Below are positions 1-15,970 of a stretch of 18,759 nt of DNA, one piece after another. The stretch comes from Candidatus Poribacteria bacterium (GTDB lineage: Bacteria > Poribacteria > WGA-4E > UBA9662): NCBI GenBank assembly GCA_036339735.1, contig JAYZAL010000008.1, forward strand, positions 1 through 18,759, read 5' to 3'. The translations under genes were made by a program, and so were the position numbers. The notes beneath the pieces are model-generated. The model worked only from the letters and a program-made list of their open reading frames with translations. It ran no database searches and was not told where the DNA came from. How positions within the stretch are numbered: the stretch's first letter is position 1; the number at the start of each line of letters is the position of its first letter.

Positions 1-2
1 AA

Positions 3-332
3 AACGCAGATGCTCTCTCTCACGGAGAAAGTTTCATGAATCTATTTCAACAGCGTATAACTCCGAGAGGTCTCTATCTAGTTGATGAACCTGAGGCGGC
101 TCTATCACCATTACGACAGTTGGGTTTGCTATCTCTCCTTAAGGAAGCGGTAGAGGAGGATTGTCAGTTCATAATTGCAACCCATTCACCAATCTTGATG
201 GCATTTCCAGAGGCGAGCATCTTGAACTTTGATAACCTGCCTGTTGCAGAGACTGAGTATCATGAACTTGAACACGTCAAATTGACAAGAGATTTTCTGA
301 ACAATCCAGAGGCTTTTTTAAGACATTTGTGA
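3..332 (+). CDS. C-terminal part of an ABC/AAA-family predicted ATPase (COG3910-like), 5'-truncated by the window edge
   Basis: Frame is open from base 3 ([15 protein letters not shown]...). It has the signature variant SHGESF, Walker B/D-loop [13 protein letters not shown] and H-loop IIATHSPIL. Ends TGA at 330-332. Confidence 0.9.
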
Positions 333-346
333 TAGATATTCTTACC

Positions 347-366
347 TTTCGCGTTATCTCGCGAAA
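347..366 (+). terminator. Short hairpin after the ATPase stop, possible terminator
   Basis: TTTCGCG-ttatct-CGCGAAA, a 7-bp perfect stem 14 nt after the stop. No good U-tract on the + strand. Confidence 0.3.
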
Positions 367-485
367 ATAATGTGAATTAATTTCGCTCAAATGCCTATTC
401 ACTACTGTATTCGTGTAACTCTATAGAAATCGACCAACTCTTTTTGCACAGTTGCATTTAAACCCCGATTTTGGGGAGCTGATTT

Positions 486-720
486 GTCATTTTGAAACGG
501 TGCAGAACTTTGGTTCCAGCGCTGACCAGTCTAAGTCTTAAATGACTACGTTATGGATGAATATTATAGGCACCGTCGAATGATTCACCAGTTCGACGCT
601 CTGCGGTACTGAATTAAACAGGCATATTGGGTATCAAGCCAGTGTTTAGTACTCGAAACCATCCAATAACTTTGACGAGGTAACCATTGCCTGACTGACT
701 TCGGTTAGTCAGCGATTAGT
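486..720 (+). ncRNA. omegaRNA (HEARO-like) scaffold of an IscB/IsrB OMEGA element; 5' boundary uncertain (about 455-500)
   Basis: Ordered HEARO-like motifs: TGACCAG-tCTAAG...GACTACGTT...ATAGGCACC...CCAGTT...CTCTGCG...TTAAACAG...CAGTG...AAACC...ATAAC-TTTGACGAGG. Stems: 534-537/544-547, 550-559/660-670, 574-580/592-598, 606-614/644-652, 621-623/638-640, plus a c(UUCG)g hairpin at 691-712. Lies directly upstream of an iscB-like start codon. Confidence 0.85.
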
Positions 721-738
721 GGGAAACCGCATTTATTT

Positions 739-1212
739 ATGAAAGTATTTGTCATCGACACTAACAAACAACCCTTATTCCCTTGCTCGGCTGGCAAGGC
801 TCGTCGTTTACTGCCTACTGGTAAGGCTTCGGTTTATCGTCGTTACCCTTTCACTATCATTCTTCATCTTCAGGTGTAAGATGCCAACCCACAACCCTTA
901 CGTTTCAAGGTCGACCCTGATTTCAGAACATCAGGCTTGGCTTTAGTCAATGATCAGACTGGTCAAATCCTATGGGCGGCTGAATTATCGCATCGAGGCT
1001 GTCTGATTAAGGATGCGTTAGAAAGTAGACTTAGTCTGAGAAGAGGACGACGAAGTCGAAAGACTCGTTATTGACCACCCCGATTTAATAACCGAACCCA
1101 ACCCAAAGGCTGGTTACCACCTTCCTTAATGAGTCGCTTATACAACATTGAAACTTGGTACCAACGTTTGGCCCAGCAATGTTTTATCAATAGTTTTACA
1201 AATAAAGGATAG
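739..1212 (+). pseudogene. iscB: Pseudogenised, 3'-truncated IscB/IsrB-family RNA-guided nuclease (PLMP/RRXRR region, RuvC-I, bridge helix)
   Basis: Manual translation from ATG 739: MKVFVIDTNKQPLFPCSAGKARRLLPTGKASVYRRYPFTIILHLQV*DANPQPLRFKVDPDFRTSGLALVNDQTGQILWAAELSHRGCLIKDALESRLSLRRGRRSRKTRY*PPRFNNRTQPKGWLPPSLMSRLYNIETWYQRL... This shows PLMP-like PLFP, YPFTIIL, RuvC-I KVDP..TSGLAL, RRGRRSRKTRY and GWLPPSL. In-frame stops are TAA 877-879 and TGA 1072-1074. Homology ends near 1170-1195, before RuvC-II/HNH. Confidence 0.9.
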
Positions 1213-1318
1213 AAAAAATCGCTAGTTTTGGCAGACTAAATCTCTTTGGATCTTGGCCTACGAGTGTATGCCTAAGATTTAAAATCCCTATTCCTTAGAC
1301 ACAGGTATATTGATCTGG

Positions 1319-1347
1319 TTGACAACCATCAAGTTTTGCCCTAGGAT
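1319..1347 (+). promoter_or_regulatory. Putative sigma70 promoter
   Basis: TTGACA (1319-1324), 17-nt spacer, TAGGAT (1342-1347). Confidence 0.45.
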
Positions 1348-1409
1348 AATCGCTCTACTCCCGAAAACTAGAATTGAATTGACAAGTAATTCCAAATAGT
1401 TTTTGTTTT

Positions 1410-1754
1410 TTCCTTTACAATCAAGAGAAGTTAAAGAAAATAAAGTCTCGGTTATGAAAGAATGTTGGTGAGATATGTAGGAGTAGATTCAATTCCCTGA
1501 GCTCATCAAATGATGATTAGTTAGATAATACTCTTAATCGTGTAACTGTCAACCGTAAGAATTACTAGAATTATAATATTCCCTACATATTGAACGCTGA
1601 TGAACTAAAGTCCATAAAGAGGTAAAAACAATCGTTATCCTGACCTGTTTGATGAAAAATCATAGACCTTTCGCTACAGAGGGAAGAACATGAATCAATT
1701 TCTTGGACCATGAAGCAGAATATTGAGAGTAATAATCTCTTCGACGATGAATGA
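1410..1754 (+). pseudogene. Heavily decayed NUDIX/MutT-like hydrolase remnant (tentative)
   Basis: Fragments in NUDIX order across frames: IKRS, then CW*DM, then IQFPELIK**LVR*YS*SCN (eroded Nudix box, with TAA where Glu GAA is expected), then KTIVILTC, then IDLSLQREEHESISW...NLFDDE* (typical L..EEH....W C-terminal motif). Many stops and at least one frameshift. Confidence 0.4.
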
Positions 1755-1786
1755 GACATTTAATTTAAACATTAGGCACAACATTA

Positions 1787-4063
1787 ATGATGGAAACTAT
1801 AACTTCAAAACATACCTTACAGGCTGTTCCTGTTACACAAGTTCAATTTACAGACCAATTCTGGACTTCAAAAATCGAAATAAACAGAACCAAGACCTTA
1901 GCCCAATGCTTTCGACAGTGTGAAGAAACTAACAGAATCCGTAACTTTGAGGTTGCAGGTGGATTAAACACAGGGGATTTCGATGGTATCTTCTTCAACG
2001 ATTCTGATGTCTACAAAGTGGTGGAAGGTGCCGCTCACATTTTGGCCTCCAATCGTGACCCAGCTATCGAAACACAGCTCGATCAATGGATCGCCAAATT
2101 TGCAGCCGCACAACAAGCTGATGGATATCTGAATACATACTACACTTTAGTTGAACCGGATAAACGCTGGACTGATTTACCGGTTATGCATGAGCTTTAT
2201 TGTGCTGGCCACCTGTTCGAGGCAGCTGTAGCACATTACCGTTCGACTGGTAAATGTTCTCTGCTTGATATTGCGACCAAGTTCGCTGACTATATTGATA
2301 GCGTTTTTGGGCCAGGTGGAAAGTCTGGTACTCCCGGCCACCAAGAAATTGAATTGGCTTTGGTTAAGCTGTACGAAGTAACGGACGAAAAGCGGTATTT
2401 GGATTTGGCCGCCTTCTTTATCGATCAGCGAGGTCAATCTGGATCTGACTATTCTCAGGATCATGTACCTGTTCGTCAGCAAAGTGAGATTGTGGGGCAT
2501 GCAGTACGGGCTATGTATCTTTATGCTGGAGTAGCAGATGTTGCGCGTTATACTGGGGACGAAGACTTGTTTGCTTGCATGGATCGGATCTGGAAAGATG
2601 TAACATTACGCAAGATGTACATTACCGGTGGGATTGGACCCTCTGGCCACAATGAAGGTTTCACTGTCCCTTACGATCTACCGAACGAAACCGCTTACGC
2701 CGAAACCTGTGCTGCTATTGGAATGGTTTTGTGGAGCCATCGTATGTTCCTCTTACACGGACGGTCAGAATACATTGATGTTTTGGAACAATCCCTTTAC
2801 AACGGTCTATTGTCGGGTGTTTCGCTGGACGGTGATAACTTCTTTTATACGAATCCTCTATCCAGTCACGGTCAACATCACCGGCAACCTTGGTTTGGTT
2901 GCGCTTGTTGTCCAACTAACGTAGTTCGGTTTATTCCACAGGTAGGTGGTTATTTCTATGCTAGCACTGCCAGTAGTTTGTGGGTCAATCTTTATGCTAG
3001 TAATCAGGCTACTGTCTCTATGGGTGAACAAATGGTTAACATCCATCAAGAGAGCAATTATCCGTGGCAAGGATGGACAAAATTAACCCTAGAGCCTGAC
3101 AAAACTAATGACTTTCAGCTTTGTCTCCGACAACCTAACTGGGCTAAACAGGTTGGTCTAAAGCTCAACGGACAAATACTTCAGATCACGTCTAACTCAA
3201 ACGGTTACTTGGAAATTACCAGAGCTTGGCGGGCTGGAGATGTGGTTGAAGTCAATTTTGATATGTCAGTAGAGCGAATCATTGCTAACCCACAAGCCAA
3301 AGCTAATAATGGCAGGCTGTCCCTACGCCGAGGACCATTGGTATACTGTTTGGAGGCGACTGACAACGATGGGTCGGTACGAGATATAGCCTTACCCAGA
3401 AATAGCCCATTGAAAGCTAAATTTGAGCCAAATCTGTTAGATGGGGTTGTAGTTCTCCAAGGTCCGGCTAACCGTCGTATAGCCGCAGATTGGGGAACAG
3501 AACTGTATAAAACTGTCAGTCTTGATCAGGAGACCCAAATTACTGCTATCCCCTACTTTGCCTGGGATAATCGAGAATCCGGCCAAATGACGGTTTGGCT
3601 ACCAGAAAGTACGATTCTGACTGAGCCTAAGTTACAGCCTAGTATCGCTAGTCAAGGCCGACCATCAGCTTCTCACGTTTTTGGACAGTTATCAGCAGCT
3701 ATTGATGGTATTTTACCAGCTAGCTCTGCTGATCAAACTCACCCTAAGTTTACCTGGTGGGATAAAAAAGGAACCCAAGAGTGGATTTGTTTGACTTTCA
3801 ACGAACCGGTGCAAATTTCAGAATCTGCGGTTTATTGGTTTGATGATACTGGATTTGGTGAATGCCGTCCACCAGAATCATGGTGGTTGGAGTGGGACAA
3901 CGGCGGTCAATGGCAACCAGTTAAAAACCCATCTAAATATGGCCTTCAGTTAGATGGGTTTAATTCCGTCACCTTTGATCCAGTTACTACTCAACAGCTA
4001 AGAATTGTAGTTGAACTACAAGATAATCTATCCAGCGGGTTGCTAGAATGGCTATTAAACTAA
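1787..4063 (+). CDS. Glycoside hydrolase family 127 (beta-L-arabinofuranosidase HypBA1-like cysteine glycosidase) with a C-terminal discoidin/F5-8-like beta-sandwich
   Basis: GH127 motifs FNDSDVYKVVE, HELYCAGH, GHQEIELAL, GHAVRAMY, NEGF, YAETCA, FYTNPL, WFGCACCPTN, RGPLVYCLE, IPYFAWDNR. The last ~140 aa (AAIDG...WICLTF...VYWFDD...FDPVTTQQLRI) look discoidin-like. No signal peptide evident. Start may be 1790. Confidence 0.93.
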   Translation: MMETITSKHTLQAVPVTQVQFTDQFWTSKIEINRTKTLAQCFRQCEETNRIRNFEVAGGLNTGDFDGIFFNDSDVYKVVEGAAHILASNRDPAIETQLDQWIAKFAAAQQADGYLNTYYTLVEPDKRWTDLPVMHELYCAGHLFEAAVAHYRSTGKCSLLDIATKFADYIDSVFGPGGKSGTPGHQEIELALVKLYEVTDEKRYLDLAAFFIDQRGQSGSDYSQDHVPVRQQSEIVGHAVRAMYLYAGVADVARYTGDEDLFACMDRIWKDVTLRKMYITGGIGPSGHNEGFTVPYDLPNETAYAETCAAIGMVLWSHRMFLLHGRSEYIDVLEQSLYNGLLSGVSLDGDNFFYTNPLSSHGQHHRQPWFGCACCPTNVVRFIPQVGGYFYASTASSLWVNLYASNQATVSMGEQMVNIHQESNYPWQGWTKLTLEPDKTNDFQLCLRQPNWAKQVGLKLNGQILQITSNSNGYLEITRAWRAGDVVEVNFDMSVERIIANPQAKANNGRLSLRRGPLVYCLEATDNDGSVRDIALPRNSPLKAKFEPNLLDGVVVLQGPANRRIAADWGTELYKTVSLDQETQITAIPYFAWDNRESGQMTVWLPESTILTEPKLQPSIASQGRPSASHVFGQLSAAIDGILPASSADQTHPKFTWWDKKGTQEWICLTFNEPVQISESAVYWFDDTGFGECRPPESWWLEWDNGGQWQPVKNPSKYGLQLDGFNSVTFDPVTTQQLRIVVELQDNLSSGLLEWLLN

Positions 4064-4501: not shown

Positions 4502-5284
4502 TCAGAATTCTGCAGGTGGCCTACGAGGTGGCAGAGGTTGTACTATCTGGCGTCTTTCTCTTGTTAATCTAGAAATTAGATCTGGAGAAGGCTGAAAACC
4601 ATAACGATCGTTCCCCCAATGGGGGCCATAGCGGATAATGAGTATTCGTCTTTGGCCTTGATTAACTCGACGAGCTGAACCATGCGCTAGGCAATCAACA
4701 AAACAGGCTGCGTCGCCAGCTTTCAGTTGGACTTCCACTGCTGCTGGTACTCCATCCAAAGAAGGTGCTTTCTCTTTTAGTGATGGGTGGAGAAGGTTAG
4801 ATTTATGGCTACCTGGTACAATCATCGTTGCTCCATCCCCTGGTCCCACATCATTTAAAGCCAGCAGAATATTTACCTGTCCGCAGCGGAACTGACCATT
4901 ATGATACCGGAACTGGGTTCGAATTCGGCGTTTACTGGCTCCAGAGTGTATCCGAGTGGATTGGCCATGGCCACGGATATCAGCAAATGACTCATCAATG
5001 AATAATCCATCATCTCCGCCAACGAAACAATTGATATGTGGTAACCAAGAAGGATGATCGATTAATCTTTCAAAAGGGGTACCCATTTCAAATATATTGT
5101 GCAAATGATAAGTTTCACCCCGTCCGGGATGGCGATAAACCCAGCCTCGCCAATGTCCAGGTTCTAGATCCAGATATGAGTCCAGTGTGTGATTAAGTTC
5201 TGACAGATGATTTCTGTCGATAGCTTCAGGAAGACAAACATATCCTCGAAGATCGAAGAGATACTGTTCTAATGTCGTTGGCAC
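4502..5284 (-). CDS. PhyH-family Fe(II)/2-oxoglutarate oxygenase with atypical H-S-G iron motif
   Basis: YLFDLRGYV start, LIDHP, LALNDVGPGDGATMIVPGSHKSN, KAGDAACF..LAHGS, RRILIIRY. First ligand motif is H113-S-G115, distal His is H201. GTG start preceded by AAGGA. Confidence 0.88.
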   Translation of the reverse strand: MPTTLEQYLFDLRGYVCLPEAIDRNHLSELNHTLDSYLDLEPGHWRGWVYRHPGRGETYHLHNIFEMGTPFERLIDHPSWLPHINCFVGGDDGLFIDESFADIRGHGQSTRIHSGASKRRIRTQFRYHNGQFRCGQVNILLALNDVGPGDGATMIVPGSHKSNLLHPSLKEKAPSLDGVPAAVEVQLKAGDAACFVDCLAHGSARRVNQGQRRILIIRYGPHWGNDRYGFQPSPDLISRLTRERRQIVQPLPPRRPPAEF

Positions 5285-5432
5285 GTATTAGTTTCCTTGT
5301 TCGCCTAATTAAATTTGATAATTCGTAAATAGAATAGCACTTTCAAGAAAGATAGTAGAAAATTTTTTCACAGATCGGAATATAAGAAAGAATAAAGAAT
5401 AGAAGGAAATAATGCTTCATCTGATTATCATA

Positions 5433-6623
5433 TCAATCAAAGAAGGATTGATCTTCTTCCTTCAAAAAGGGCTTGGTTAATTCTGGAATCAAATTTATTC
5501 CCATACCAGGTCGATCCCAAACTTCAATAAATCCGTCTTTCACAATTGGGTTTGGTAACCCTTCTACGATGTCATACCACCATTCTGGCTGGCCTATCGG
5601 ATATTCGAATGCGATATAATTTTGTGGTAATGTGGCACAAACCTGAACTAGAGCAGCTAAACCAAGCAATCCATTACCGATTCCATGAGGAGCCATCAAG
5701 ATTCCGTGCAAATCTGCATATTCGGCTACCCATTTCAACTCTGAGATACCACCAACATCGCAAGGATCCGGACCAATAACGTTAACCGCTTTTCTTTCAA
5801 GTAAATCTTTGAAATTTTGGCGCAAGTAAATTTGTTCACCTGTATGAATTGGAGTTGATGTTGACCGAGTTACTTCCCTATAGGAATCGGGGTCTACCCA
5901 TGGAACGTAATCTCCCGTCAGCATATCTTCCAACCACATCAAATTCAAATGCTCGACTGATTGCGCTAGCCGAATCGCATCGGGGACGGTAAATCCAGGG
6001 CCACAATCAAGTGCTAGTCCAACCTCATCACCTAATACTTCTTTCATCGCCTCGATACAATCGATTAAGTGTTTCATTCCTGACTCGGTTATTAATCCCC
6101 GATTCAATCGGTGTCCTTCAGGTAAGGATTCGCCGTAATAAAAATTAGGTATTTGTTGTGCCATAGGCGAATGAAAAGCAACGCCCTGTTTGATAATGGT
6201 AAACCCTTCCGGAGAAGACTTCATCAATGCCATATTATCCGCATGGTGTTTGGGCTCACCTCCCTTTGACGGGAAGCGAATCCCACCATTATAGACTCTG
6301 ACTAGATCGCGGACTTTGCCACCTAGTAGTTTATAAACAGGTAGATTAGCTGCTTTGCCCGCAAGATCCCATAGTGCCATCTCTATGGCACTAACGGCAC
6401 TCCCCCATGGTTTGAAACTCCCCATTCGACGGATTTGCATCATGACCCGCTCAACGTTCGTCGGATCTTGACCTATAATATGATCCTTATAAAAAATTAC
6501 ATGAGGCTTCAGGTAGGTCTTGAATGATTCGATTTGTCCAAACCCATCAATACCCTCATCTGTCACTATTCTTACTACTGGACTGTTTCCGATAACTGCA
6601 CATTTTAAATCTGTAATTTTCAT
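5433..6623 (-). CDS. Mandelate racemase/muconate lactonizing enzyme (enolase superfamily) protein, probably an acid-sugar dehydratase-like enzyme
   Basis: MKITDLK, VRIVTDEGIDGFG, SAIEMALWDLAGKA..LPVYKLLGGKVRD. Metal ligands in LALDCG, WLED and TGEQ. Also GPD, APH and FEY, and C-terminal PGMGI. Confidence 0.93.
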   Translation of the reverse strand: MKITDLKCAVIGNSPVVRIVTDEGIDGFGQIESFKTYLKPHVIFYKDHIIGQDPTNVERVMMQIRRMGSFKPWGSAVSAIEMALWDLAGKAANLPVYKLLGGKVRDLVRVYNGGIRFPSKGGEPKHHADNMALMKSSPEGFTIIKQGVAFHSPMAQQIPNFYYGESLPEGHRLNRGLITESGMKHLIDCIEAMKEVLGDEVGLALDCGPGFTVPDAIRLAQSVEHLNLMWLEDMLTGDYVPWVDPDSYREVTRSTSTPIHTGEQIYLRQNFKDLLERKAVNVIGPDPCDVGGISELKWVAEYADLHGILMAPHGIGNGLLGLAALVQVCATLPQNYIAFEYPIGQPEWWYDIVEGLPNPIVKDGFIEVWDRPGMGINLIPELTKPFLKEEDQSFFD

Positions 6624-6724
6624 TTATTTCTCACCAACAGGCGTTGTAGGTTTATCACAGGATTATTTGGGTATCATTAAATTTTAATTGTATTATAATG
6701 CATAAGGTGGATTGATTGTGATGG

Positions 6725-6752
6725 ATATTATGCTTCAGGTTGACTCAGTCAA
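6725..6752 (-). promoter_or_regulatory. Putative sigma70 promoter for the enolase-family gene; the -35 is half of the palindrome TTGACT-C-AGTCAA (6740-6752)
   Basis: Minus strand TTGACT (6752-6747), 16-nt spacer, TAATAT (6730-6725), in the divergent intergenic region. Confidence 0.3.
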
Positions 6753-6951
6753 TATGATTATGGCGTAAACACAGTACTTTATTATTGATTGTCTTACTAT
6801 CCGTTTATAGATCTCAAGATCATGCGGATACTCATCTATAGTCAAGTTTCTATATCCATTACTTCATTTCGAAAACCAGTTTGTATAACTTAATATTACA
6901 TGTTGGACCAGATCTAGACACACTTGAGTTAAAGAATAAGGAGAAAAACCG

Positions 6952-7854
6952 ATGGCAATGGTACAAATGAACCGCCTAGAACCATTACAAGACGCAACTA
7001 ATCTACTTGATCAACCAACAGATATACAACGGCAAGCATCAAAAGACGGTTATTTATTTTTTTCAGATCTACTAGATTCAACTAAAGTGTTTAACCTTCG
7101 ACATAAAATTATGTCTATTTGTGAGAAACATGGCTGGACCCAGTGTGGCACAAATTACATCGAGGGGCTAGCTAACCCTGATTTATTGGTAGTAGAACAT
7201 GAGGATCCTAGATGGAAAGATTTCTATGTAGAGGTACAGAGATTGCCAGAGTTCCACCAATTGGCTCTCGATGAAAATATTATTCGAGTTTTTGAAATCT
7301 TGTTCGGCGAAAAAGTTCTTCCCCACAGCCGAAATATATGTCGCTTGGTTTTTCCAAATTCTTCCTCTCATTCAACTCCACCCCATCAAGACAATTTGTA
7401 TATTGGTGGATCAACTGAAACGTGGACCGCGTGGATACCTTGCGGAGACTGCCCTGAAATGCTGGGAGGCTTAGCAGTAGCCAAGGGGTCACACCGCCAA
7501 GGCAAATTAGCCGATAAAAGAGCCGTTGGCCCAGGAGGTCGACAAGTAGAAGTCTCAGATGATCAAATATGGGTGGGTGGAGATTATATTTGTGGGGATG
7601 TGATGATCCTACATAGCTTAACCGTACATCAGGGATGCGACAACTTGAGTGGTAATAAACTTAGAGTTTCTTGTGATTTCCGATATCAACCACGAAGCCA
7701 CCCCATACGTTCGGACTCTTTAATGTCCCACATGTGCTTGTTAAACTGGGAACAGATTTACCAAGATTGGGAACCTAATAATCCAGCCAAATATTATTGG
7801 AAAGACTGGGATTTAGAAATTACAGGCGAAAGCTATCCCACATGGGATGACTAA
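6952..7854 (+). CDS. PhyH-family Fe(II)/2OG dioxygenase
   Basis: DGYLFF, TPPHQD, WTAWIPCGDCP..LGGLAVAKGSH, GDVMILHSLTVH, RVSCDFRYQP. RBS AAGGAG at 6938-6943. Confidence 0.92.
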   Translation: MAMVQMNRLEPLQDATNLLDQPTDIQRQASKDGYLFFSDLLDSTKVFNLRHKIMSICEKHGWTQCGTNYIEGLANPDLLVVEHEDPRWKDFYVEVQRLPEFHQLALDENIIRVFEILFGEKVLPHSRNICRLVFPNSSSHSTPPHQDNLYIGGSTETWTAWIPCGDCPEMLGGLAVAKGSHRQGKLADKRAVGPGGRQVEVSDDQIWVGGDYICGDVMILHSLTVHQGCDNLSGNKLRVSCDFRYQPRSHPIRSDSLMSHMCLLNWEQIYQDWEPNNPAKYYWKDWDLEITGESYPTWDD

Positions 7855-7874
7855 ATTGGGGACGGATTTGCCGG

Positions 7875-7913
7875 GATTGGAAACCTTATCAGTTTAGGAT
7901 AAGATTTCCAATC
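7875..7913. terminator. Long hairpin downstream of the PhyH gene (terminator or 3' stabiliser)
   Basis: GATTGGAAA-c-CTTATC, 7-nt loop, GATAAG-a-TTTCCAATC: 15 of 16 pairs, 20 nt after the stop. Confidence 0.5.
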
Positions 7914-7924
7914 GATTCTATCAA

Positions 7925-8210
7925 ATTGATACATCGTTAAATTGAACAGCTCGCAAATTTATGTGTGACAGTAGATTTTTCCAGTTGAAACTTGACAAAC
8001 TTTTATCATAGAACGCGCTATTCCTGACATTCGCCAAACTGACGGAAGCAATTAAATGTTCGTGATGATACATTCGGCGAACGCTTTACTACCAATAGTC
8101 TCCACGCTATCAGGTAAAGTGTAATGGTCAGACTGGTGTAATCATAGAAGACTAAAAGCACAATCTATGATTCGGTAAATACGGTAAAAAACCTCTGCAG
8201 TTTCTTACTC
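7925..8210 (-). pseudogene. Decayed BspA-type (LRR_5) leucine-rich-repeat protein fragment
   Basis: Minus-strand pieces: ETAEVFYRIYRIIDCAF, FYDYTSLTITL (8149-8117), LPDSVETIGSKAFAECIITNI* (from 8117), SVSLANVRNSAFYDKSLSSFNWKNLLSHINLRAV. These match the BspA consensus AFxxCxsLtsItLPdsVtxIGxxAF, broken by frameshifts and stops. Confidence 0.7.
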
Positions 8211-8353
8211 TCGTTGATTGGATGTCTAACTCCCATTGAAAATATCGGAAATAATTCTACTAAAATGATGGCGAATACTCCCGGTCTAGTGTCGTTTTGG
8301 AATTTTGTTGTGATTTTAACTGTCTTTTTTTGAAATAATGGAGGAGTATCAGT

Positions 8354-9118
8354 ATGACTAATAAATCTCAGAATACTGGTTTAACAGAAGACCAGAAAAA
8401 ATTTTACCAAGAAAATGGGTATATTATTTTAAGCTGTGTGTTTAGTACCACTGAGTGCCAAGATTTTGTTGGACACATGGAAGATTTAGAAAATGGAAAA
8501 AAAGATCTGGAACACTTTGGTCAACAGAGTACTTATGGTTTCCGGACCTTCAATCAACATTTATATGATCCATGGGCCTTAAATTTTCTAATTCATCCAC
8601 GATTAGCCAAGCCATTAGCCGATTGTATGGGAGATGAAGCAGAAGCCATTCAAACAATGCACTTCTATCAGGGATCTGAACATCCGCGTCATCAAGACCA
8701 ATATTATCTACCGGACTGCATGTCGGCTTGGATTGCCATGGTTGACGTAACTGATAAGAATGGTCCGTTATGTGTCCAACCAGGATCACATCGAGGGAGA
8801 CTGATCACCAAAAGAGATGTGTCAATGGAATTCTCCTCAGGTGAAACCTATGAAGATCAACAAGCAAATCGATATTTCCCAGCGGTTGAGAAAGTTTTTA
8901 TGGAAAATGGCGTAAAGGAGATAGAATTACAAGCCAATCAAGGTGATGTGGTTCTATTCAATGGCCGTCTGATACATGGTGGAGCCAAAGTTAAGGAGCC
9001 GGGTAGTCCTAGGCACGCACTAGCCTGTCATTATATCCCTTATCATTCTGAGAATTGGGATCGAGATTGGCCACGTATTGGTTTCAACGGTACCCGCAGA
9101 ATTCACTTTCAAAATTAG
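8354..9118 (+). CDS. PhyH-family Fe(II)/2OG dioxygenase
   Basis: LTEDQKKFYQENGY, HPRHQD, SAWIAMVDVTDKNGPLCVQPGSH, GDVVLFNGRLIHGG, RHALACHY. RBS GGAGGAG at 8340-8346. Confidence 0.92.
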   Translation: MTNKSQNTGLTEDQKKFYQENGYIILSCVFSTTECQDFVGHMEDLENGKKDLEHFGQQSTYGFRTFNQHLYDPWALNFLIHPRLAKPLADCMGDEAEAIQTMHFYQGSEHPRHQDQYYLPDCMSAWIAMVDVTDKNGPLCVQPGSHRGRLITKRDVSMEFSSGETYEDQQANRYFPAVEKVFMENGVKEIELQANQGDVVLFNGRLIHGGAKVKEPGSPRHALACHYIPYHSENWDRDWPRIGFNGTRRIHFQN

Positions 9119-9620
9119 AACAGCCATTTTCTGGTTGGACTGCTATATCCTATAACTCTAATTAAGTTGGATACAAAAGTGAAAGGGTAATTTAAATTAG
9201 CAGATAAGACTTAATCCAAAATTCGTTAAGTGTGATATATGGATAGACTACTTTCACTAAGTCCTATTGGATTGAAATATAATTTGGAAATAGAAGGGGT
9301 AGTGGAAAATACTGCCCAAAATATACCCGACTAAATGATAGATCAAGAAATTATATATTTAGTGATCAAAGTAATGTGGGTAATCAGACACTCTCCCTGA
9401 AGGTCTCGCCAAAGACCAATTGTTCACACGGACAGGTACTATCTAATCTAGATGGTACTCTTTTCGGTTTTTCTATCCATTTTAATCCTTCCATCTTTTT
9501 TATTTCAGTAAATCTTAATTATTGGCTCTTGGATAATTGGTTGTTTTTAGTATAGTATGAGGTTCAATCAGAGTAATCGAATGCAAAAATCTAGTTGAAT
9601 ACTATTGAATTTTTTACCAG

Positions 9621-9671
9621 CTATGTGTAGAGATGAAACCTCTTAATGTTAACCTTCATCTCTACACATAG
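9621..9671. repeat. Perfect 17-bp inverted repeat with a 17-nt spacer
   Basis: CTATGTGTAGAGATGAA (9621-9637) and TTCATCTCTACACATAG (9655-9671). Confidence 0.9.
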
Positions 9672-9763
9672 GATTTAGATTAACAAATTAAAAACGAAAA
9701 TGTTTTCTCAATATTACCGATAATTTCTAACCCCAAACTATATCCACGAACCAAGGAGCTACA

Positions 9764-10600
9764 GTGTTGAATAATCACCAACTTTCAACTGAGCAAATCC
9801 AGTCTTTTCTGGACGATGGTTATCTAATAGTCCCTGATCTTTTTGATCAAGAAGAGACTAATCTCCTATTAGATGCCGCCCAAGCAGATCCCATGATGAA
9901 GGATCATATATTGGACGTCGATGACCGATCAGGAAGGAATAGTCAGATCACCGTCTGGAATCATCCAGGTAACGATATCTGGGGTATGGTTAGTCGTTCA
10001 CATCGATTGGTGGATGCAATGGAATCAATGTTGGGAGGAGAAGTCTACCATTATCATTCCAAGCTTCTACATAAAAAACCGGAAATTGGAGGGGCTTGGG
10101 AGTGGCATCAGGATTACGGGTACTGGTATAAGAATGGGTGTCTCTATCCTTATTTGGCGAGCTGTTGGATTGCTCTCAATCGGGCTGATAAAAGCAACGG
10201 ATGTATGCAAGTGATCAAGGGGTCTCATCACGCCGGTCGAATTGAACACCATATTGATTCCGGTCAAAACTACGCAGATCCTGAACGAGTAGAACAACTG
10301 ATCAATCGACTGGAGATTGTTTTCTGTGAATTAGACCCAGGATCGGCTTTGTTTTTCCACTGCAATGTTCTACATCGATCCGATGCCAATACCAGTAATC
10401 GAAACCGATGGAACCTGATTTGTTGTTACAATGCAGCCCGAAACAACCCTTACAAGGCATTTCCACATCCGCAATATACGCCTCTCGAAAAGGTTTCCGA
10501 TACCGCCATCAAGGAAATTGGACTAAAGTTAAGTGTGTCATCTGATTCATTTTACAAACCAGACCAAGGTGTTATTAGACGAGGGCACACGGCCGATTAG
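9764..10600 (+). CDS. PhyH-family Fe(II)/2OG dioxygenase (ectoine hydroxylase / L-proline 4-hydroxylase-like branch)
   Basis: FLDDGYL, LGGEVYHYHSKL..K.P..GGAWEWHQDYGYWY.NGCL, NGCMQVIKGSH, FFHCNVLHRSDAN, RWNLICCYN. GTG start with RBS AAGGAG at 9753-9758. Confidence 0.92.
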   Translation: MLNNHQLSTEQIQSFLDDGYLIVPDLFDQEETNLLLDAAQADPMMKDHILDVDDRSGRNSQITVWNHPGNDIWGMVSRSHRLVDAMESMLGGEVYHYHSKLLHKKPEIGGAWEWHQDYGYWYKNGCLYPYLASCWIALNRADKSNGCMQVIKGSHHAGRIEHHIDSGQNYADPERVEQLINRLEIVFCELDPGSALFFHCNVLHRSDANTSNRNRWNLICCYNAARNNPYKAFPHPQYTPLEKVSDTAIKEIGLKLSVSSDSFYKPDQGVIRRGHTAD

Positions 10601-10633
10601 CGTAGGTGAAACAGCCACCGGTTAGCTGAACTC

Positions 10634-10661
10634 TTGACAGCATAGATAAGTCTGATAATAT
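10634..10661 (+). promoter_or_regulatory. Putative sigma70 promoter
   Basis: TTGACA (10634-10639), 16-nt spacer, TAATAT (10656-10661). Confidence 0.35.
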
Positions 10662-10934
10662 GAAGAAGGCATTTTATTGATGTCAAACAACTATAAGGTC
10701 TAAGTAGAAAAAGAAATCGTGCCCGATAATTCTTGAACTACTTGCGGGTTCAATTAGATGGGGCGCATACCGACAAATATGAATATAATTGTGGGTACAG
10801 AACTAACAAACACAAAAAGCTAAGTTGGTCTTTAAGGTATTAAGTCAGAAAGTGATATTAGAAAATTTAAGGTCTACTTATTCAATCGAGAAACTTTAGA
10901 AATTACCGAAAATCGTAATACGGGAAAAAATACA

Positions 10935-11804
10935 ATGAATCAGCATAATTTTACGATTCCTAATTTCTGTAAAAATGGATTTGCTGTTGTTGAAGATGGA
11001 TTGTCTAAGACAGAGGTTGACCAACTCCGGAAAGAAACCACTAAAATCTGCCGAGGGGAACTTGGACAGGTCGCAGGTCTTCCTCCCTCTGCACCAGAAG
11101 AAAATAGCTATGAAGTTCTAGAACGAGTATTATGTGTACATTTTCCCTACAAAATTTCGCAGATCATGTTCGACGTATTATCTCACCCTATCATCGTAGA
11201 TAATCTAACAAAAATCATTGGACCAAACGTCAAATGTATGCAACAAATGCTTTTCATTAAATCGTCAGGAATGCCAGGACAAGCCTGGCACCAGGACGAA
11301 TCATTTGTACCGACGCGGGACCGATCACTCAATGCTGCTTGGATCGCCTTAGACGATGCAACTGTTGAAAATGGTTGCCTGTGGTTCATGCCCAACTCTC
11401 ACCAGTCTGGTATTATCTACCCAAATCGAGAGCAAAGCGACGAACGTTTCGATTGTGTAGAGGAAGCCTATGGGTATCCATTCACTGAGAAAGAGGCCGT
11501 TCCAGTTGAAGTTGAGGCCGGATCTATTATCTTCTTTAATGGCTACACATTGCATCGATCTCTACCTAATGCAAACAAAAAAGTTTACCGAAGGTCTCTA
11601 GTGAATCATTATATGAGCGCTGAGTCCTTATTACCTTGGCGAAGGTCAGAAAATCCAATACCAGTTGCCCGATATGATCACCGTGATATTGTAATGATTG
11701 CAGGTGAGGATCCCTATGCATACAAAGGAATAGAAAAAATATCCTTTTCACATATTCGTCCTCAAAGGCAGGGCGGATGTCAATGGCCGAGCCAAACAGA
11801 GTAA
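10935..11804 (+). CDS. PhyH-family Fe(II)/2OG dioxygenase
   Basis: IIGPNVKCMQQMLFIK..G.PGQAWHQDE, AAWIALDDATVENGCLW..PNSH, GSIIFFNGYTLHRS, RRSLVNHY. Confidence 0.92.
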   Translation: MNQHNFTIPNFCKNGFAVVEDGLSKTEVDQLRKETTKICRGELGQVAGLPPSAPEENSYEVLERVLCVHFPYKISQIMFDVLSHPIIVDNLTKIIGPNVKCMQQMLFIKSSGMPGQAWHQDESFVPTRDRSLNAAWIALDDATVENGCLWFMPNSHQSGIIYPNREQSDERFDCVEEAYGYPFTEKEAVPVEVEAGSIIFFNGYTLHRSLPNANKKVYRRSLVNHYMSAESLLPWRRSENPIPVARYDHRDIVMIAGEDPYAYKGIEKISFSHIRPQRQGGCQWPSQTE

Positions 11805-11906
11805 GTTATTGAAAATAATTGTATGAAGTCTTTCTATCCTGAAAACTATCAATCAACGATCTGATTCGATCCTGCGTTCTATCTTCTCGCTGATTCTGCC
11901 CTTGAT

Positions 11907-11954
11907 ACTAGATTGGGTTTATTGTCTAAAAATTACCAATAAACCCAATCTAGT
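11907..11954. repeat. Perfect 18-bp inverted repeat overlapping the 3' end of the membrane-protein gene
   Basis: ACTAGATTGGGTTTATTG (11907-11924) and CAATAAACCCAATCTAGT (11937-11954). The 12-nt loop contains the TAA stop (11933-11935, minus strand). Confidence 0.9.
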
Positions 11955-13822
11955 GTCTGTTGGTTAAAAATAATAGCGTATGTTTTCCATAATAGTATGC
12001 AGGTAGCATCACCGATGGTAATACCTAGAAAGATTGGTATAGCATTACGTAACCCTTTTAGGCCGCTGAATTTGATGAGTGTCCATCGAATGAGCCAAGC
12101 TATAAAAATTGGGAACCAAAGGTGACGGAGCATCCAATCTTGGCCAATGATATAACCCAGTGGATGGAAACTCCACCAAATATATCGACGACTTAAAATA
12201 GCTAAAGCGAAAACGATACCGCCCCCTAGACTGAAGTAACTAAGGTAGACCAAATCAGGACGGGTTGTTTTATTTTGGATCTGGTTGACCAGACTGGAGA
12301 ATGTTTCTTCGCCTGCCCAAGTCTTATTGGTCAATCGGTAGGCACGTTCCAGATTTCCCACAAAACCAATTACAGTTCCTAATATCAGCGCAGCTACGAT
12401 TCCTACCACGACTATTCTAATTTGTCGAGAATGAAGTCGATGTTGCAGATAGAATCCCTCCATGATTTGTGGCATCGGGCTGCCACGCTGGCCAAAATCG
12501 ACAAACATAAATAGTGAAAATTGAGTTAGTGTGCGATTATCTATGTATCGAGTACTAATCACTCTGGATAGGAAACCTGAAACAGTAAACGGTATTTCAT
12601 GCGTCGGAGGGCCGACCTGTGCTCTAAGGCGTGTTGTCACAACCGTTAAGCCAAAAAAACCAGCTAAGAACAAAATTGCAAACAATAAGCTCATTCCGGC
12701 ATAAACCAAGAAAACGATAGCGATACTAGTACTAATCAAAAACCCCCAAACAGCTAAAAAGTAGGGTGTATCGTCGACTGATCTCAGTTTAGATGAGGTG
12801 AAAACTACCTTGAAGACCCCAATCAAATGCCGTCTTGCCCAATACAAAAACATGATACCGAATATTGCCATTCCACCTAGTCCTTGGATCCAATATCCCG
12901 GAAAATAAGGTAATTGATGAAGACCTGATGCCTGTCCCGTTACGTTTATCAATTTCCAAAACCAATAAAAAAACCAGATAGAAAACGAGAGTTTAGTTGG
13001 AATGAAAAAAGCTAATCCAGTTACAAAAGGTAGTATTTCGATATAGGCGACCTCAATCGCACTCCACGGTGGTTCAGGGAATAACTCTGCTAGGTTATAT
13101 TTACCATAGGTCAGTCCTGGGACAACCGGGACTAGGTGGTGAATTCCGTTGTTTAAGCTCAATAATGAGGTTACCAAAAACCCAAACCAAAATTTCTTGT
13201 TTTGATAAATTGATCGGCGAGGAGACAGTAATTGCAGAGGGATTTGGGCAATTGGAAAAGTCAACAATTCGTTGTTTATCCACTGTCTACGCAGCAGCAG
13301 GCTAAGAAAAATCATACTAAAGTAGAGCAGGATAGTGAATAAAGACCAAAGCAAGATAGGTTGGACCCAAGCTGGCCAAATGTGTGGGGAAAAAAAACTC
13401 TCATCGTAGTAAATCAATCCTTCAGCCACTAGAGGGTCGAGAATAACGAGACGCGTAGGGAGATAGTGAAAAAAAATCGATTTCCAATCATTTTCTGGAG
13501 AAGCGAAATGAACAGGATAGGCTACAATCTGAGTGAGAATCTCAAGGGTATCATGTCCAGCGGCGGCGGTAGCCGAAGTCAACATGATATAAACCAACAT
13601 TAGTTCGGATGGACGAAGAATTGCGCTCGTTTTCACTTTTAATAACAGTACATTTAATAAACCCAGTATAAAAGTGATGACAATAGCATTGATAAATAAT
13701 GAAGCTAGAGTGAAACCATTCCAAGTACTGGTAACCCAATATTGTGTAGATACCACCAAAAATGTGCCAACCAATAGAGTACCTGATCGAATTGAATTAG
13801 ACTGACTAGATATTCGAAGCAA
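11933..13822 (-). CDS. Large polytopic membrane protein, DUF6785/DUF6784-like (putative transporter)
   Basis: 629 aa with many hydrophobic segments. Family-like motifs SELMLVYIM, SPENDW, W..W..P...W, LRRQW...ELLTFPI, SIWFFY, WWSFHPLGY, FIAWLI, PIFLGITIGD. TTG start is uncertain; an in-frame TGA lies four codons upstream. Confidence 0.75.
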   Translation of the reverse strand: MLRISSQSNSIRSGTLLVGTFLVVSTQYWVTSTWNGFTLASLFINAIVITFILGLLNVLLLKVKTSAILRPSELMLVYIMLTSATAAAGHDTLEILTQIVAYPVHFASPENDWKSIFFHYLPTRLVILDPLVAEGLIYYDESFFSPHIWPAWVQPILLWSLFTILLYFSMIFLSLLLRRQWINNELLTFPIAQIPLQLLSPRRSIYQNKKFWFGFLVTSLLSLNNGIHHLVPVVPGLTYGKYNLAELFPEPPWSAIEVAYIEILPFVTGLAFFIPTKLSFSIWFFYWFWKLINVTGQASGLHQLPYFPGYWIQGLGGMAIFGIMFLYWARRHLIGVFKVVFTSSKLRSVDDTPYFLAVWGFLISTSIAIVFLVYAGMSLLFAILFLAGFFGLTVVTTRLRAQVGPPTHEIPFTVSGFLSRVISTRYIDNRTLTQFSLFMFVDFGQRGSPMPQIMEGFYLQHRLHSRQIRIVVVGIVAALILGTVIGFVGNLERAYRLTNKTWAGEETFSSLVNQIQNKTTRPDLVYLSYFSLGGGIVFALAILSRRYIWWSFHPLGYIIGQDWMLRHLWFPIFIAWLIRWTLIKFSGLKGLRNAIPIFLGITIGDATCILLWKTYAIIFNQQTLDWVYW

Positions 13823-13877
13823 AAACTTTTCTCAATATTTAGGTTACGCTGATTATGTATTAAGATATGGGAAAATC

Positions 13878-13897
13878 GTTTTCTCAGATGAGAAAAC
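13878..13897. promoter_or_regulatory. Palindromic operator-like site in a divergent promoter region
   Basis: GTTTTCTCA-GA-TGAGAAAAC, a perfect 9-2-9 dyad between the divergent membrane-protein and PhyH genes. Confidence 0.45.
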
Positions 13898-14077
13898 AGT
13901 GAACAATATACTTACCATTTCAACTTTTGTGTCTACGCAGAGTTATAATTCTAAAACATCCCTATAGGTGAATCGGAAAAAATTGGTAGACAAAAAGCTA
14001 TTTTTAATTTATTTTCTAGATAAGAATTCTGCTAAGAACAACATAGTATCAAAAAAAAACAGGAATAGGTTGATAAT

Positions 14078-15034
14078 ATGCTAGATAAAGAACAAATTAA
14101 TCGTTTCCATCGGGACGGTTTTTTGGTCATTCCTCAATTATTTTCAGGTAAAGAACTCGAATTGTTGCAACAAGCAGCTCAACATGTTCAGCACGAAGGT
14201 ACAGCTAGATTAGGAGCGGGACACTTGTATCATACACACGAAGATGGGACACAGACCTATTTCCGTAGTGAGCGTATGTGGGATCGAGACCCCATCTTTC
14301 GAGCAGTAACAGTCAATCCCGATTTGCTATCTGCGGTAGGCCAGTGTATCGGTCACTCCTTTTTTCCCTTCAATAATGCCCTTGTTTGTAAGCTACCAGG
14401 AGGAAATGTACCTGTGTTTTGGCACCAAGACCCTCCTTACTGGACCGAGCCAACCTTAACGCCAAAATTTACATCCATATGGGAATTAGAATCAACATTC
14501 GAAATTCCGAACTTTGTAGCTGATATCTACTTAGACCGTTCTACTATCGATAACGGCTGCGTTTGGGGTCTACCAGAACACCATCTGGTTGGTCATGTGG
14601 AGTTAAATCGTCTAAATGAAGATCAGCTATTTGAGAATCATAATACTGTGGCCTTAGAGATGGAGCCTGGGGATGTATTATTTCATGCCCTTTCCGCTCC
14701 ACACGGTTCGCGCGGTAATTTGACAGACACAACGAGACGAGTGGTATATCTACAATATGTGAATATTGAGGTTTTTTCCCATGGTTATTCAGACTGGACG
14801 TTTCATGGTCAACGCACCTTAGGAGTTAATGGGCAAAAATTAATTCAGGAAATGATGGATAGTCGTCGTGATCTTGGTTTTTCAGGTGTGGAAGGTTATC
14901 CACTTCGTCAAGTCGATAATCATTGGGAGTTTTTGGGAAATCCTTCCACACCTGACAGGCATTGGAAAGGTTTGATTAAACAGATGTCAGACCAAGAAAT
15001 CAAACAAAAAAAACGGTTGCAGTCTTTGATTTAA
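14078..15034 (+). CDS. PhyH-family Fe(II)/2OG dioxygenase
   Basis: EQINRFHRDGFLV, CKLPGG.VPVFWHQDPPY, DIYLDRSTIDNGCVWGLP.HH, PGDVLFHALSAPHGS.GN, RRVVY. Confidence 0.92.
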   Translation: MLDKEQINRFHRDGFLVIPQLFSGKELELLQQAAQHVQHEGTARLGAGHLYHTHEDGTQTYFRSERMWDRDPIFRAVTVNPDLLSAVGQCIGHSFFPFNNALVCKLPGGNVPVFWHQDPPYWTEPTLTPKFTSIWELESTFEIPNFVADIYLDRSTIDNGCVWGLPEHHLVGHVELNRLNEDQLFENHNTVALEMEPGDVLFHALSAPHGSRGNLTDTTRRVVYLQYVNIEVFSHGYSDWTFHGQRTLGVNGQKLIQEMMDSRRDLGFSGVEGYPLRQVDNHWEFLGNPSTPDRHWKGLIKQMSDQEIKQKKRLQSLI

Positions 15035-15065
15035 CCAACCTCACAAAGACTGTTGCAAAGTAAGA

Positions 15066-15124
15066 TGGAAGGATGAAAAAAATTACGTCTTACGTTAATA
15101 CATTGTTCTTTTTTTATCTTTCCA
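15066..15124 (+). repeat. Imperfect inverted repeat (16-bp stem with two G-U pairs) downstream of the PhyH gene
   Basis: TGGAAGGATGAAAAAA and TTTTTTTATCTTTCCA. Both DNA mismatches are G-U pairs on the + strand transcript. Confidence 0.5.
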
Positions 15125-15216
15125 GAATTAACCATCCAATTTTTTGTAATCACAGATGGGCTTCAGGATTTGACGGAATATAGTAGAAATTTGGGTTATG
15201 GTAAAGAGCAAATAAT

Positions 15217-15970
15217 ATGGCGATCAAACAAACCTTAGCTGAATTAGGCGTAGACGATCAAACACTCAGTACCAAAGAGCAACTCGACCAAGACGGATTT
15301 TTTGTCGTTAAGTCTGTATTGAGCAGGAAGTCATATACCAACATGTGTGACGAGTTTGATCAAATTCACCAAGTTGAAGGCAAACAATCAGGTTGGGAGG
15401 TACATAAGGAAGACGAGGCAATAAGACTATCGAACGTGCTCAACAAAACGACCAAATCTGGTGATTGTCTCTATAGCAAATCCTTGCTAGTTGCCGCTTA
15501 CCATCTGCTAAAACCAGACTTCAAAGTCTACGATTTGGCTTCTCCTAGTCACGATCATCAAAGGTTTTACAACGATTATGGTCCCGCTATTCCCATCGGC
15601 AACAACTGTGTTCTTAATTCCTTGATTTTGCTGGACCCGTTTACTGAAGATAACGGAGCAACCTGAATTGCGCCCGGCTCTCACCTCTTAGGCTTACAAC
15701 CGGAAGGTGTGATGGGCAATACACTAGATCCTCATTCGAACGAAATTCGCTTGACGGCACCAGCAGGTAGCACAGTTATCCTGAATGCTCACACTAGGCG
15801 CGGTGGTACGCTTAACGTCAGCGGTGAACAGCGACTTAGGACACACCTTACCAGTGTTTACGCTGAGAGCCAAAGCAACTGGTATAACAGATTTTCTGAC
15901 GCCAACACTGTATAACAGAATGCCATCTGCTCACCGCTATCTATTAGATATAAAACTACCTAAACCGTAG
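15217..15970 (+). pseudogene. PhyH-family dioxygenase pseudogene
   Basis: ORFs 15217-15666 and 15709-15915 are in one frame joined across TGA 15664-15666 (DPFTEDNGAT*IAPGSH; Arg CGA expected). A later frameshift leads to the likely tail ...LYNRMPSAHRYLLDI (to 15970). Iron ligands are lost: FYND in place of LHxD and NAHTRRGGT in place of WHGGT. Confidence 0.85.

Follow-up and report, generated by a model that had tools for sequence, protein, structure and literature searches.

The window analyzed here (18,759 nucleotides, beginning with the first base of contig C8 in a draft genome of 4.32 Mb in 107 contigs, 92% complete) very probably contains, at positions 446–1194, a 749-bp internal fragment of a decayed, non-working IscB-omegaRNA (OMEGA/HEARO) locus. 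IscB is an RNA-guided nuclease and the ancestor of Cas9, and together with an omegaRNA encoded upstream it makes up the established OMEGA system; the intact protein consists of the PLMP domain, the split RuvC nuclease, the bridge helix, the HNH domain and the TAM-interacting domain. In an intact locus, a single transcript upstream of iscB provides the 5′ guide and, after it, the omegaRNA scaffold, and the IscB protein of about 437 amino acids binds this RNA and cuts DNA complementary to the guide. In the window, the protein gene is reduced to codons 1–152, two of which have become nonsense codons, and conserved residues are substituted; the RNA gene has kept its core but lost its first 12 nt along with everything upstream (the guide, any array, and the leader and presumed promoter). 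We infer that the relic is immobile and is not expressed as a functional guide RNA. An earlier note on this DNA described a hidden OMEGA element; the IscB frame and the omegaRNA are both present, but what they make up is a decaying relic, not a working element.

The relic is ordinary genomic debris of a known system, and the window adds no new principle, the array-bearing IscB type having been published already. It is a relic of gene plus RNA, of a kind that is skipped by ORF callers, and flagging it keeps the HEARO match from passing as a working OMEGA system. The relic also points to intact marine loci of about 90% identity (L050, L054, and L053) that represent this rare array-bearing type and could be studied as compact editors or as models for the origin of crRNA and tracrRNA.

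Borders and surroundings of the relic

The borders were mapped by a blastn search of window positions 1–2400 against full-length loci from a metagenome scan; the best genes from the scan of genome contigs, from Deinococcus, are 46–47% identical and proved useless for this mapping. The identity reaches 90.6% with L050 and 90.0% with L054 and is confined to window positions 446–1190/1194, which places the left junction of the relic at 445/446 and the right junction at 1194/1195. This restriction of DNA homology to 446–1194 implies a piece cut at both ends. On the right side, where the earlier note put the cut-off near 1170–1195, homology ends at nt 1194, after codon 152; the window then continues with five unrelated codons and a TAG, and the intact iscB genes extend for 285 codons beyond the break. 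The unrelated tail of the frame (1195–1209 on the plus strand, with the TAG at 1207–1209) is seen when the DNA is set side by side with L050, L054, L053, and L058.

The left border was examined in the host flank (333–445), in which no relation to the leader or the array of the intact loci is detectable. Local alignment of this flank with the leaders of the relatives yielded scores of 15–16, compared to shuffle means of 14.5–15.8, and 211–289 of the 500 shuffles scored at least as high. A single contig from run X15 has positions 369–444 in common with the window and is unlike the window from 444 on; its 30-letter loose end matched neither the window nor the genome nor any of the fetched loci. 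Given that the flank-leader alignment is no better than those of shuffled sequences and that the X15 contig departs from the window at this very point, the left border is a truncation at 445/446, which has removed the leader and its presumed promoter as well as the guide and any array. We also considered an “array collapse,” in which window positions 426–436 would correspond to the degenerate first repeat (MAFFT aligned them in this way, with an 8-nt insertion). This candidate was rejected: alignment of 333–445 with the leader plus the first repeat scored 15 against a shuffle mean of 15.5, with 289 of the 500 shuffles reaching or exceeding this score, and the X15 contig diverges after the shared segment 369–444.

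Upstream of the flank and outside the relic lies the C-terminal part of an AAA_21/AAA_15-type ATPase gene (3–332, plus strand; PF13304, 36.2 bits; PF13175, 29.9 bits) that is cut by the contig start. Downstream, the relic is separated from the next gene by a non-coding spacer of 592 nt (1195–1786) with no iscB remains, which matched only itself in a blastn search against its own genome. The stop-to-stop frames in this spacer are at most 69 aa long, apart from those that enter from the neighbors, namely the relic frame (1075–1212), a frame on the opposite strand (1068–1235), and the frame of the next gene (from 1769). The latter gene, also outside the relic, encodes a GH127 beta-L-arabinofuranosidase-like protein (1787–4063, plus strand; PF07944, 386.8 bits; PF20736 and PF20737). 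Its ortholog in the same-genus genome G001 (75–77% nucleotide identity) has a different upstream neighbor, and the other same-genus genome, G002, produced no match, so that an empty-site comparison was of no avail and no pre-insertion site was reconstructable.

The iscB pseudogene and its decay

The iscB pseudogene (739–1194, plus strand; codons 1–152) encompasses the PLMP-like N-terminus, RuvC-I, and the arginine-rich bridge helix. All the motifs for which the frame opened by the ATG at 739 had been called IscB-like can be read in it: QPLFPCS, GKARRLL, RYPFTIILH, FKVDPDF, RRGRRSRKTRY*PPRFNNR, and KGWLPPSL. The two stops reported in this frame are likewise there, a TAA at 877–879 (codon 47) and a TGA at 1072–1074 (codon 112), and there is no frameshift. 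For profile searches, we used the read-through translation (P0001, 156 aa, with X at both stops). The scores were above the cut-offs for both the Pfam RRXRR family (PF14239; 172.3 bits, cut-off 25, residues 3–152) and the NCBIfam guided_IscB family (NF040563; 179.2 bits, cut-off 175, covering just model positions 1–150 of 314). The best matches among solved structures are IscBs (9k30, 4.8e-18; OgeuIscB 7xht, 6.1e-12), with a weaker match to the IsrB structure 8dmb (2.9e-9). The RRXRR and HEARO searches matched none of the 14 control genomes, which, together with scores exceeding the cut-offs, puts the signals far above chance.

The search for homologs retrieved 3,418 proteins at E ≤ 0.001, 120 of which were listed. 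The best of those listed are 437-aa proteins, P0002 (88% identity, spanning residues 1–154) and P0003 (83%). The HNH domain is present in 118 of these 120 best homologs out of the 3,418, the remaining two consisting of the RRXRR domain alone, and in all 11 listed homologs with at least 74% identity (74–88%). The gene of L050 is a complete 438-aa ORF with HNH, and that of L054, cut by the contig end after residue 229, encodes an HNH-containing protein as well. With the nearest relatives all possessing HNH, the remnant would descend from IscB rather than from IsrB, and we infer that the ancestor was a complete IscB locus. The statement in the earlier note that IscB and IsrB are indistinguishable here thus holds as far as the HNH-bearing part is indeed missing, but the choice is settled indirectly by these homologs.

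What was lost on the 3′ side are iscB codons 153–437, that is, RuvC-II, HNH, RuvC-III, and the TAM-interacting domain, in agreement with the earlier reading that the gene is cut before the first three of these. Neither RuvC-II, RuvC-III, nor the TAM-interacting domain was found in the window or the rest of the genome, and no piece of HNH adjoins the fragment. The intact sister copies that the earlier note proposed to look for did not turn up in the genome search; the sole other iscB trace is a scrap of about 100 nt (C24:757–854, corresponding to residues ~230–263 of P0002), and a tblastn search of the genome with P0002 revealed no further piece of the missing 3′ part. A stand-alone HNH gene on contig C44 is unrelated.

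The changes in the window were polarized with the more distant copies L053, L058, L052, and L051. On the branch leading to the window, the ORF accumulated 23 derived substitutions in 456 nt (5, 6, and 12 in the first, second, and third codon positions), of which 11 are nonsynonymous, including the two stops. The derived changes include E47* and R112*, both single-base nonsense changes, along with G61D, which adjoins the RuvC-I aspartate, W88C, R44L, R121Q, R147Q, and V77I; the nonsynonymous excess is spread along the whole fragment. The ORF branch of L054 and L050 carries 8 substitutions, all of them synonymous and in third positions. In the omegaRNA (446–738), there are 11 window-specific derived changes compared to 4 in the sisters, and L054 and L050 are identical throughout the scaffold 3′ of window position 485. 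Thus, in the ORF as well as in the RNA gene, change on the window’s branch has been about three times as fast as in the intact sister loci, as relaxed constraint on both would predict. The similar excess rate in the RNA gene and the dead ORF argues against separate retention of the RNA and shows the two halves of this RNA-guided nuclease locus decaying at a similar rate after loss of the protein. Pure neutrality would predict a nonsynonymous fraction of roughly three-quarters; the observed one (11 of 23) is lower, and part of the branch was therefore spent as a working gene.

The omegaRNA remnant and its array-bearing relatives

The omegaRNA scaffold remnant (446–738, plus strand) has an intact core and a damaged 5′ repeat/anti-repeat module. 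The HEARO-type RNA reported directly upstream of the frame is confirmed by the Rfam covariance model: cmscan produced a match to RF02033 at 486–690(+) with 109.4 bits (E = 3.5e-22; gathering score, 83), covering model positions 1–211 of 211. Throughout the 18.8-kb window, no other Rfam family exceeds its gathering score. The conserved RNA region ends at 738, right next to the ATG at 739 on the same strand. At the other end, positions 446–463 (plus strand) align with the 3′ 18 nt of the 30-nt repeats of L050, L054, and L053 and form the 5′ segment of the RNA.

The role of this segment is clarified by the intact loci. The HEARO matches in L054 (2196–2452, 124.7 bits), L050 (951–1207, 127.3 bits), and L053 (217–474, 112.4 bits) each open at the first base of the last repeat. 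In a consensus fold built from these three loci, with the window left out, the first 7 nt of the repeat, GUCAGCG, pair with CGCUGAC about 95 nt downstream to form helix P1, and the next repeat segment, GCACAGUU, pairs with AACUGUGC; the scaffold, accordingly, has two anti-repeat segments. The position at which the match opens, combined with the pairing of the repeat, indicates that the repeat is the 5′ end of the omegaRNA. The relic retains both anti-repeat strands, at 496–503 (with one mismatch) and 527–533, but it is devoid of the first 12 nt of the omegaRNA, that is, the 5′ strand of P1 beside the guide, in place of which there is unrelated sequence.

Mapped on the consensus structure, the relic keeps 84 of the 90 pairs. 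The six broken pairs all fall within the first ~100 alignment columns, three of them among the 7 pairs of P1, and not a single pair is broken 3′ of these columns. The covariance model builds P1 from a substitute, GUCA...UGAC, with the remaining helix deleted; because P1 has to come from this substitute, the relic scores 15–18 bits below its closest intact sisters, L054 and L050. The relic RNA is predicted to fold better than shuffled sequences (−86.3 kcal/mol, z = −2.6), 1 of 200 shuffles being its equal, and several of the window-specific changes preserve pairing (612/648, 682/689, and 720). With a core so well formed, there is a slight chance that some function of the RNA has been retained. 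No sigma-70-like site was detected upstream of the RNA gene, in a weak scan in which the total number of sites equals the shuffle expectation.

The three closest loci in which the upstream DNA is kept all contain a mini-array fused to the omegaRNA, with six (L050), three (L054), or two (L053) 30-nt direct repeats and spacers of 34–42 nt. The intact loci have a conserved leader of about 90 nt (the leaders of L050 and L053 align at score 90) followed by a degenerate first repeat. The gene upstream is the same in L050 and L054 (84% nucleotide identity), yet they have no spacers in common. The intact loci could be viewed with 1.3–2.5 kb of sequence on either side, in which no cas1 or cas2 was found. 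The 8 spacers of the three loci had no credible match in the genome that holds the relic or in the fetched loci, the sole match being a 17-nt low-complexity stretch; the 24 nt beside the scaffold, for one spacer per locus, had no exact matches in viral contigs, an exact-match scan being insensitive. In window positions 1–1800, there are no families of direct repeats, and the whole assembly contains no copy of the 30-nt repeat at up to 7 substitutions.

Judging from these relatives, the ancestor of the relic was probably of the CRISPR-array-associated kind, bearing in mind that every omegaRNA of this clade has these 18 nt in its 5′ part, so that an array in the ancestor cannot be read from the window. 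CRISPR-associated IscBs such as KraIscB-1 and DelIscB are described in excerpts of PMC11610941 and PMC12660989, and the ncRNA of DelIscB, according to the excerpt of PMC12660989, has repeats, spacers, and an anti-repeat. By this description, L050, L054, and L053 resemble the DelIscB ncRNA, whereas the relic lacks the array, the complete repeat, and the leader and has the anti-repeat segments. The sister loci match the published array-associated type, and their architecture is not new. A bolder reading sees in the relic the dead local representative of a marine IscB lineage, the living members of which may be natural intermediates between OMEGA and type II CRISPR. The spacers of the homologous loci L050 and L054 are wholly different, a pattern that would imply that spacers turn over even though no dedicated adaptation module is at hand; the basis for this reading is the array architecture and the lack of common spacers in just three loci, and we regard it as rather unlikely.

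Population data, alternative explanations, and related systems

Fourteen DNA sequencing runs labeled as marine or seawater contain 74–87% of the words sampled from window positions 300–1900. The DNA contigs from run X5 span 300–640 and 617–1900, with 2 and 9 letters different from the window, respectively, and bridge both junctions with both stop codons unchanged, which indicates that the relic is real and shared within the population. A contig from run X16 over 446–531 has, before 446, 12 loose letters that represent the missing P1 segment. In metatranscriptome (RNA) libraries, contigs over 446–752 and 1081–1198 carry the letters of the sisters at 583, 612, 635, 646–649, 671, 682, 689, and 720 (the relic’s own letters are A583, A612, C635, A648, T671, A682, G689, and T720) and continue into the missing 12 nt and the intact iscB. 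Given the sister letters and this continuation beyond the relic, these contigs derive from intact relatives and are uninformative on the relic; the intact sister loci, for their part, are represented in RNA libraries. No RNA contig covers 786–1055, which is not evidence of silence.

These observations bear on the possibility that the omegaRNA remnant was kept despite the death of the protein gene, either as a trans-acting, tracr-like scaffold for an IscB encoded elsewhere or as a regulatory RNA. The core pairs are all in place and the Rfam cut-off is passed, both anti-repeat segments (496–503 and 527–533) remain, and stand-alone omegaRNAs of host chromosomes are mentioned in an excerpt of a commentary on Altae-Tran 2021 (PMC11610941). 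Yet the assembly contains neither an IscB partner nor a copy of the repeat within 7 substitutions, neither the leader nor the P1 5′ strand is left and there is no sigma-70-like site upstream, the excess rate of change is similar to that of the dead ORF (11 vs 4 compared with 23 vs 8), and the RNA-library contigs over 446–752 carry the letters of the intact sisters, not those of the relic, all of which makes a stand-alone RNA quite improbable. Descent from a locus of IsrB, the HNH-less nickase, would agree with the absence of the HNH-bearing part from the window, with the match to 8dmb at 2.9e-9, and with the two of the 120 listed homologs that are RRXRR alone; the relic and IsrB also have in common the RuvC-I/bridge-helix region and the upstream omegaRNA. 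This origin appears very improbable all the same, because the match to IsrB is weaker than that to the IscB structures and the close relatives of the relic all have HNH, among them the 11 listed homologs at 74–88% identity (118 of the 120 listed overall) and L050 and L054, both of which encode HNH proteins and are about 90% identical to the relic at the DNA level.

The preferred reading of a decayed IscB locus also has to be weighed against a technical origin of the breaks, by assembly chimerism or sequencing errors in an organism that in reality has an intact gene. The draft is fragmented, the relic lies 445 nt from the contig end, and intact sister sequences co-occur in marine samples, but such an artefact is extremely improbable in view of the X5 contigs that bridge the junctions with the stops unchanged (X5 is perhaps not fully independent of the source sample), the 74–87% of words found in 14 DNA runs, and the nonsynonymous excess along the whole fragment. 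Continued expression of the gene, by read-through of its stops or under an alternative genetic code, has a close to negligible probability: the frame is unshifted and each defect is a nonsense change of a single base, but TAA and TGA would both need to be recoded, the neighboring long ORFs end normally under table 11, and the product would terminate at residue 156, without RuvC-II/III, HNH, and the TAM-interacting domain. One point against a dead relic is that a 92%-complete draft in 107 contigs may miss an intact IscB or tnpA located in an unassembled repeat.

Among the established systems, the relic shares with the IscB-omegaRNA OMEGA (OgeuIscB, 7utn/7xht; NF040563) the N-terminal architecture and the position of the omegaRNA directly 5′ on the same strand; it differs in having 152 of ~437 codons with two nonsense changes, with RuvC-II/III, HNH, and the TAM-interacting domain deleted, an omegaRNA without the first 12 nt and the guide, and no transposon end or tnpA. 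Compared to HEARO as defined by RF02033, the relic exceeds the gathering score, matches the whole model, and occupies the characteristic place before an IscB ORF, but its closing helix P1 is not intact. An excerpt of PMC9755519 equates HEARO RNA with omegaRNA and reports that 65% of HEARO nuclease 5′ UTRs have Rfam HEARO matches; these nucleases, according to the same paper, occur near TnpA only sparsely; excerpts of PMC4810608 and bioRxiv 10.1101/2023.03.14.532601 describe iscB as cargo of the IS200/IS605 family. Unlike the IS200/IS605 (ISC) elements, the relic ends in truncation junctions rather than transposon ends, the assembly has no Y1 transposase or TnpB-type gene, and nothing ties the relic to a transposon; the borders 445/446 and 1194/1195 cut into functional parts of the intact unit, so that nothing is left of any original ends. 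A literature search on decayed IscB or stand-alone omegaRNA returned nothing specific.

The genomic survey is in line with the earlier note, in which no tnpA or clear right end was seen, the right border being a truncation. The Y1 transposase TnpA (PF01797) had no matches in the 92%-complete assembly, with the control search matching 6 of 14 genomes, and no intact IscB was found there either; the assembly also contains no match to a TnpB-type gene, no second HEARO, and no other RRXRR match. The element is present in neither of the same-genus genomes G001 and G002. DNA matches to the element, mostly to its RNA part, were detected in 5 of 40 relatives. Among 41 genomes, HEARO exceeds the cut-off in one, the window’s own, and the IscB model does so in two (G000 and G003), and many iscB fragments are found in same-family genomes.

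Leader, repeats and upstream region of the array-bearing loci

The array-bearing iscB loci L050, L054 and L053, among which the first two are closest to the relic (the array-bearing regions span L050:518-980, L054:1973-2225 and L053:61-246), share a conserved leader of about 90 nt. In all three arrays, the first repeat is degenerate at exactly the seven bases that form P1, the omegaRNA helix between the start of the repeat and one of the two anti-repeat segments (GAATT at the start, not GTCAG). The five spacers of L050 and the two of L054 have none in common; the two loci do share an upstream FGE-sulfatase-type gene. Downstream of this gene lies a stretch of about 300 nt (L050:179-485; L054:1634-1940), non-coding in L054. 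It recurs with 78–88% identity on six or more contigs of the relic's own genome (among them C48, C95, C30, C19, C81 and C14) and produces no match in Rfam at the gathering score. The stretch is a dispersed repeat that these organisms have in common.

A protein gene apparently without its RNA, and a second remnant

The metagenomic locus L052 encompasses an intact iscB of 437 codons (L052:2488-3811), with 79% amino acid identity to P0002, the best protein homologue of the relic. Homology to the sister loci begins only 13 nt 5' of the ATG, and no HEARO match was detected in the locus with Rfam at the gathering score; L052 appears to be a protein gene that lacks an omegaRNA in cis and, as such, to mirror the window's relic.

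Outside the window, an intergenic region of the same genome (C24:757-854) holds another very small iscB remnant. It corresponds approximately to residues 230-263 of P0002 (81% amino acid identity; 84% nucleotide identity to L050) and may have come from the iscB copy that gave rise to the relic or from a different one.

RNA-library contigs next to the relic, and genes further downstream

Contigs from three RNA libraries cover the intergenic region 5' of the GH127 gene (window 1318-1777) at a depth of 2–7. Each differs from the window by 0 to 4 letters, and one also has a 3-nt gap; a sigma-70-like site (TTGACA, 17 nt, TAGGAT) is present at 1319-1347. The contigs could reflect a small RNA or an extended 5' UTR, or else DNA carry-over in the libraries. 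In RNA-library run X15, a single 557-nt contig matches window 369-444 (4 other letters and 1 gap), and its sequence beyond 444 was found nowhere in the window or in the genome; the source may be a related strain in which this site is arranged differently.

Further downstream, seven genes encoding PhyH (phytanoyl-CoA dioxygenase) domains are found within 11 kb of the window (4502-15666), an unusual tandem expansion: 4502-5284 (minus strand), 6952-7854, 8354-9118, 9764-10600, 10935-11804, 14078-15034 and 15217-15666. Interleaved with these are genes for an enolase-superfamily protein (5433-6623) and a DUF6785/DUF6784 protein (11933-13822), both on the minus strand.
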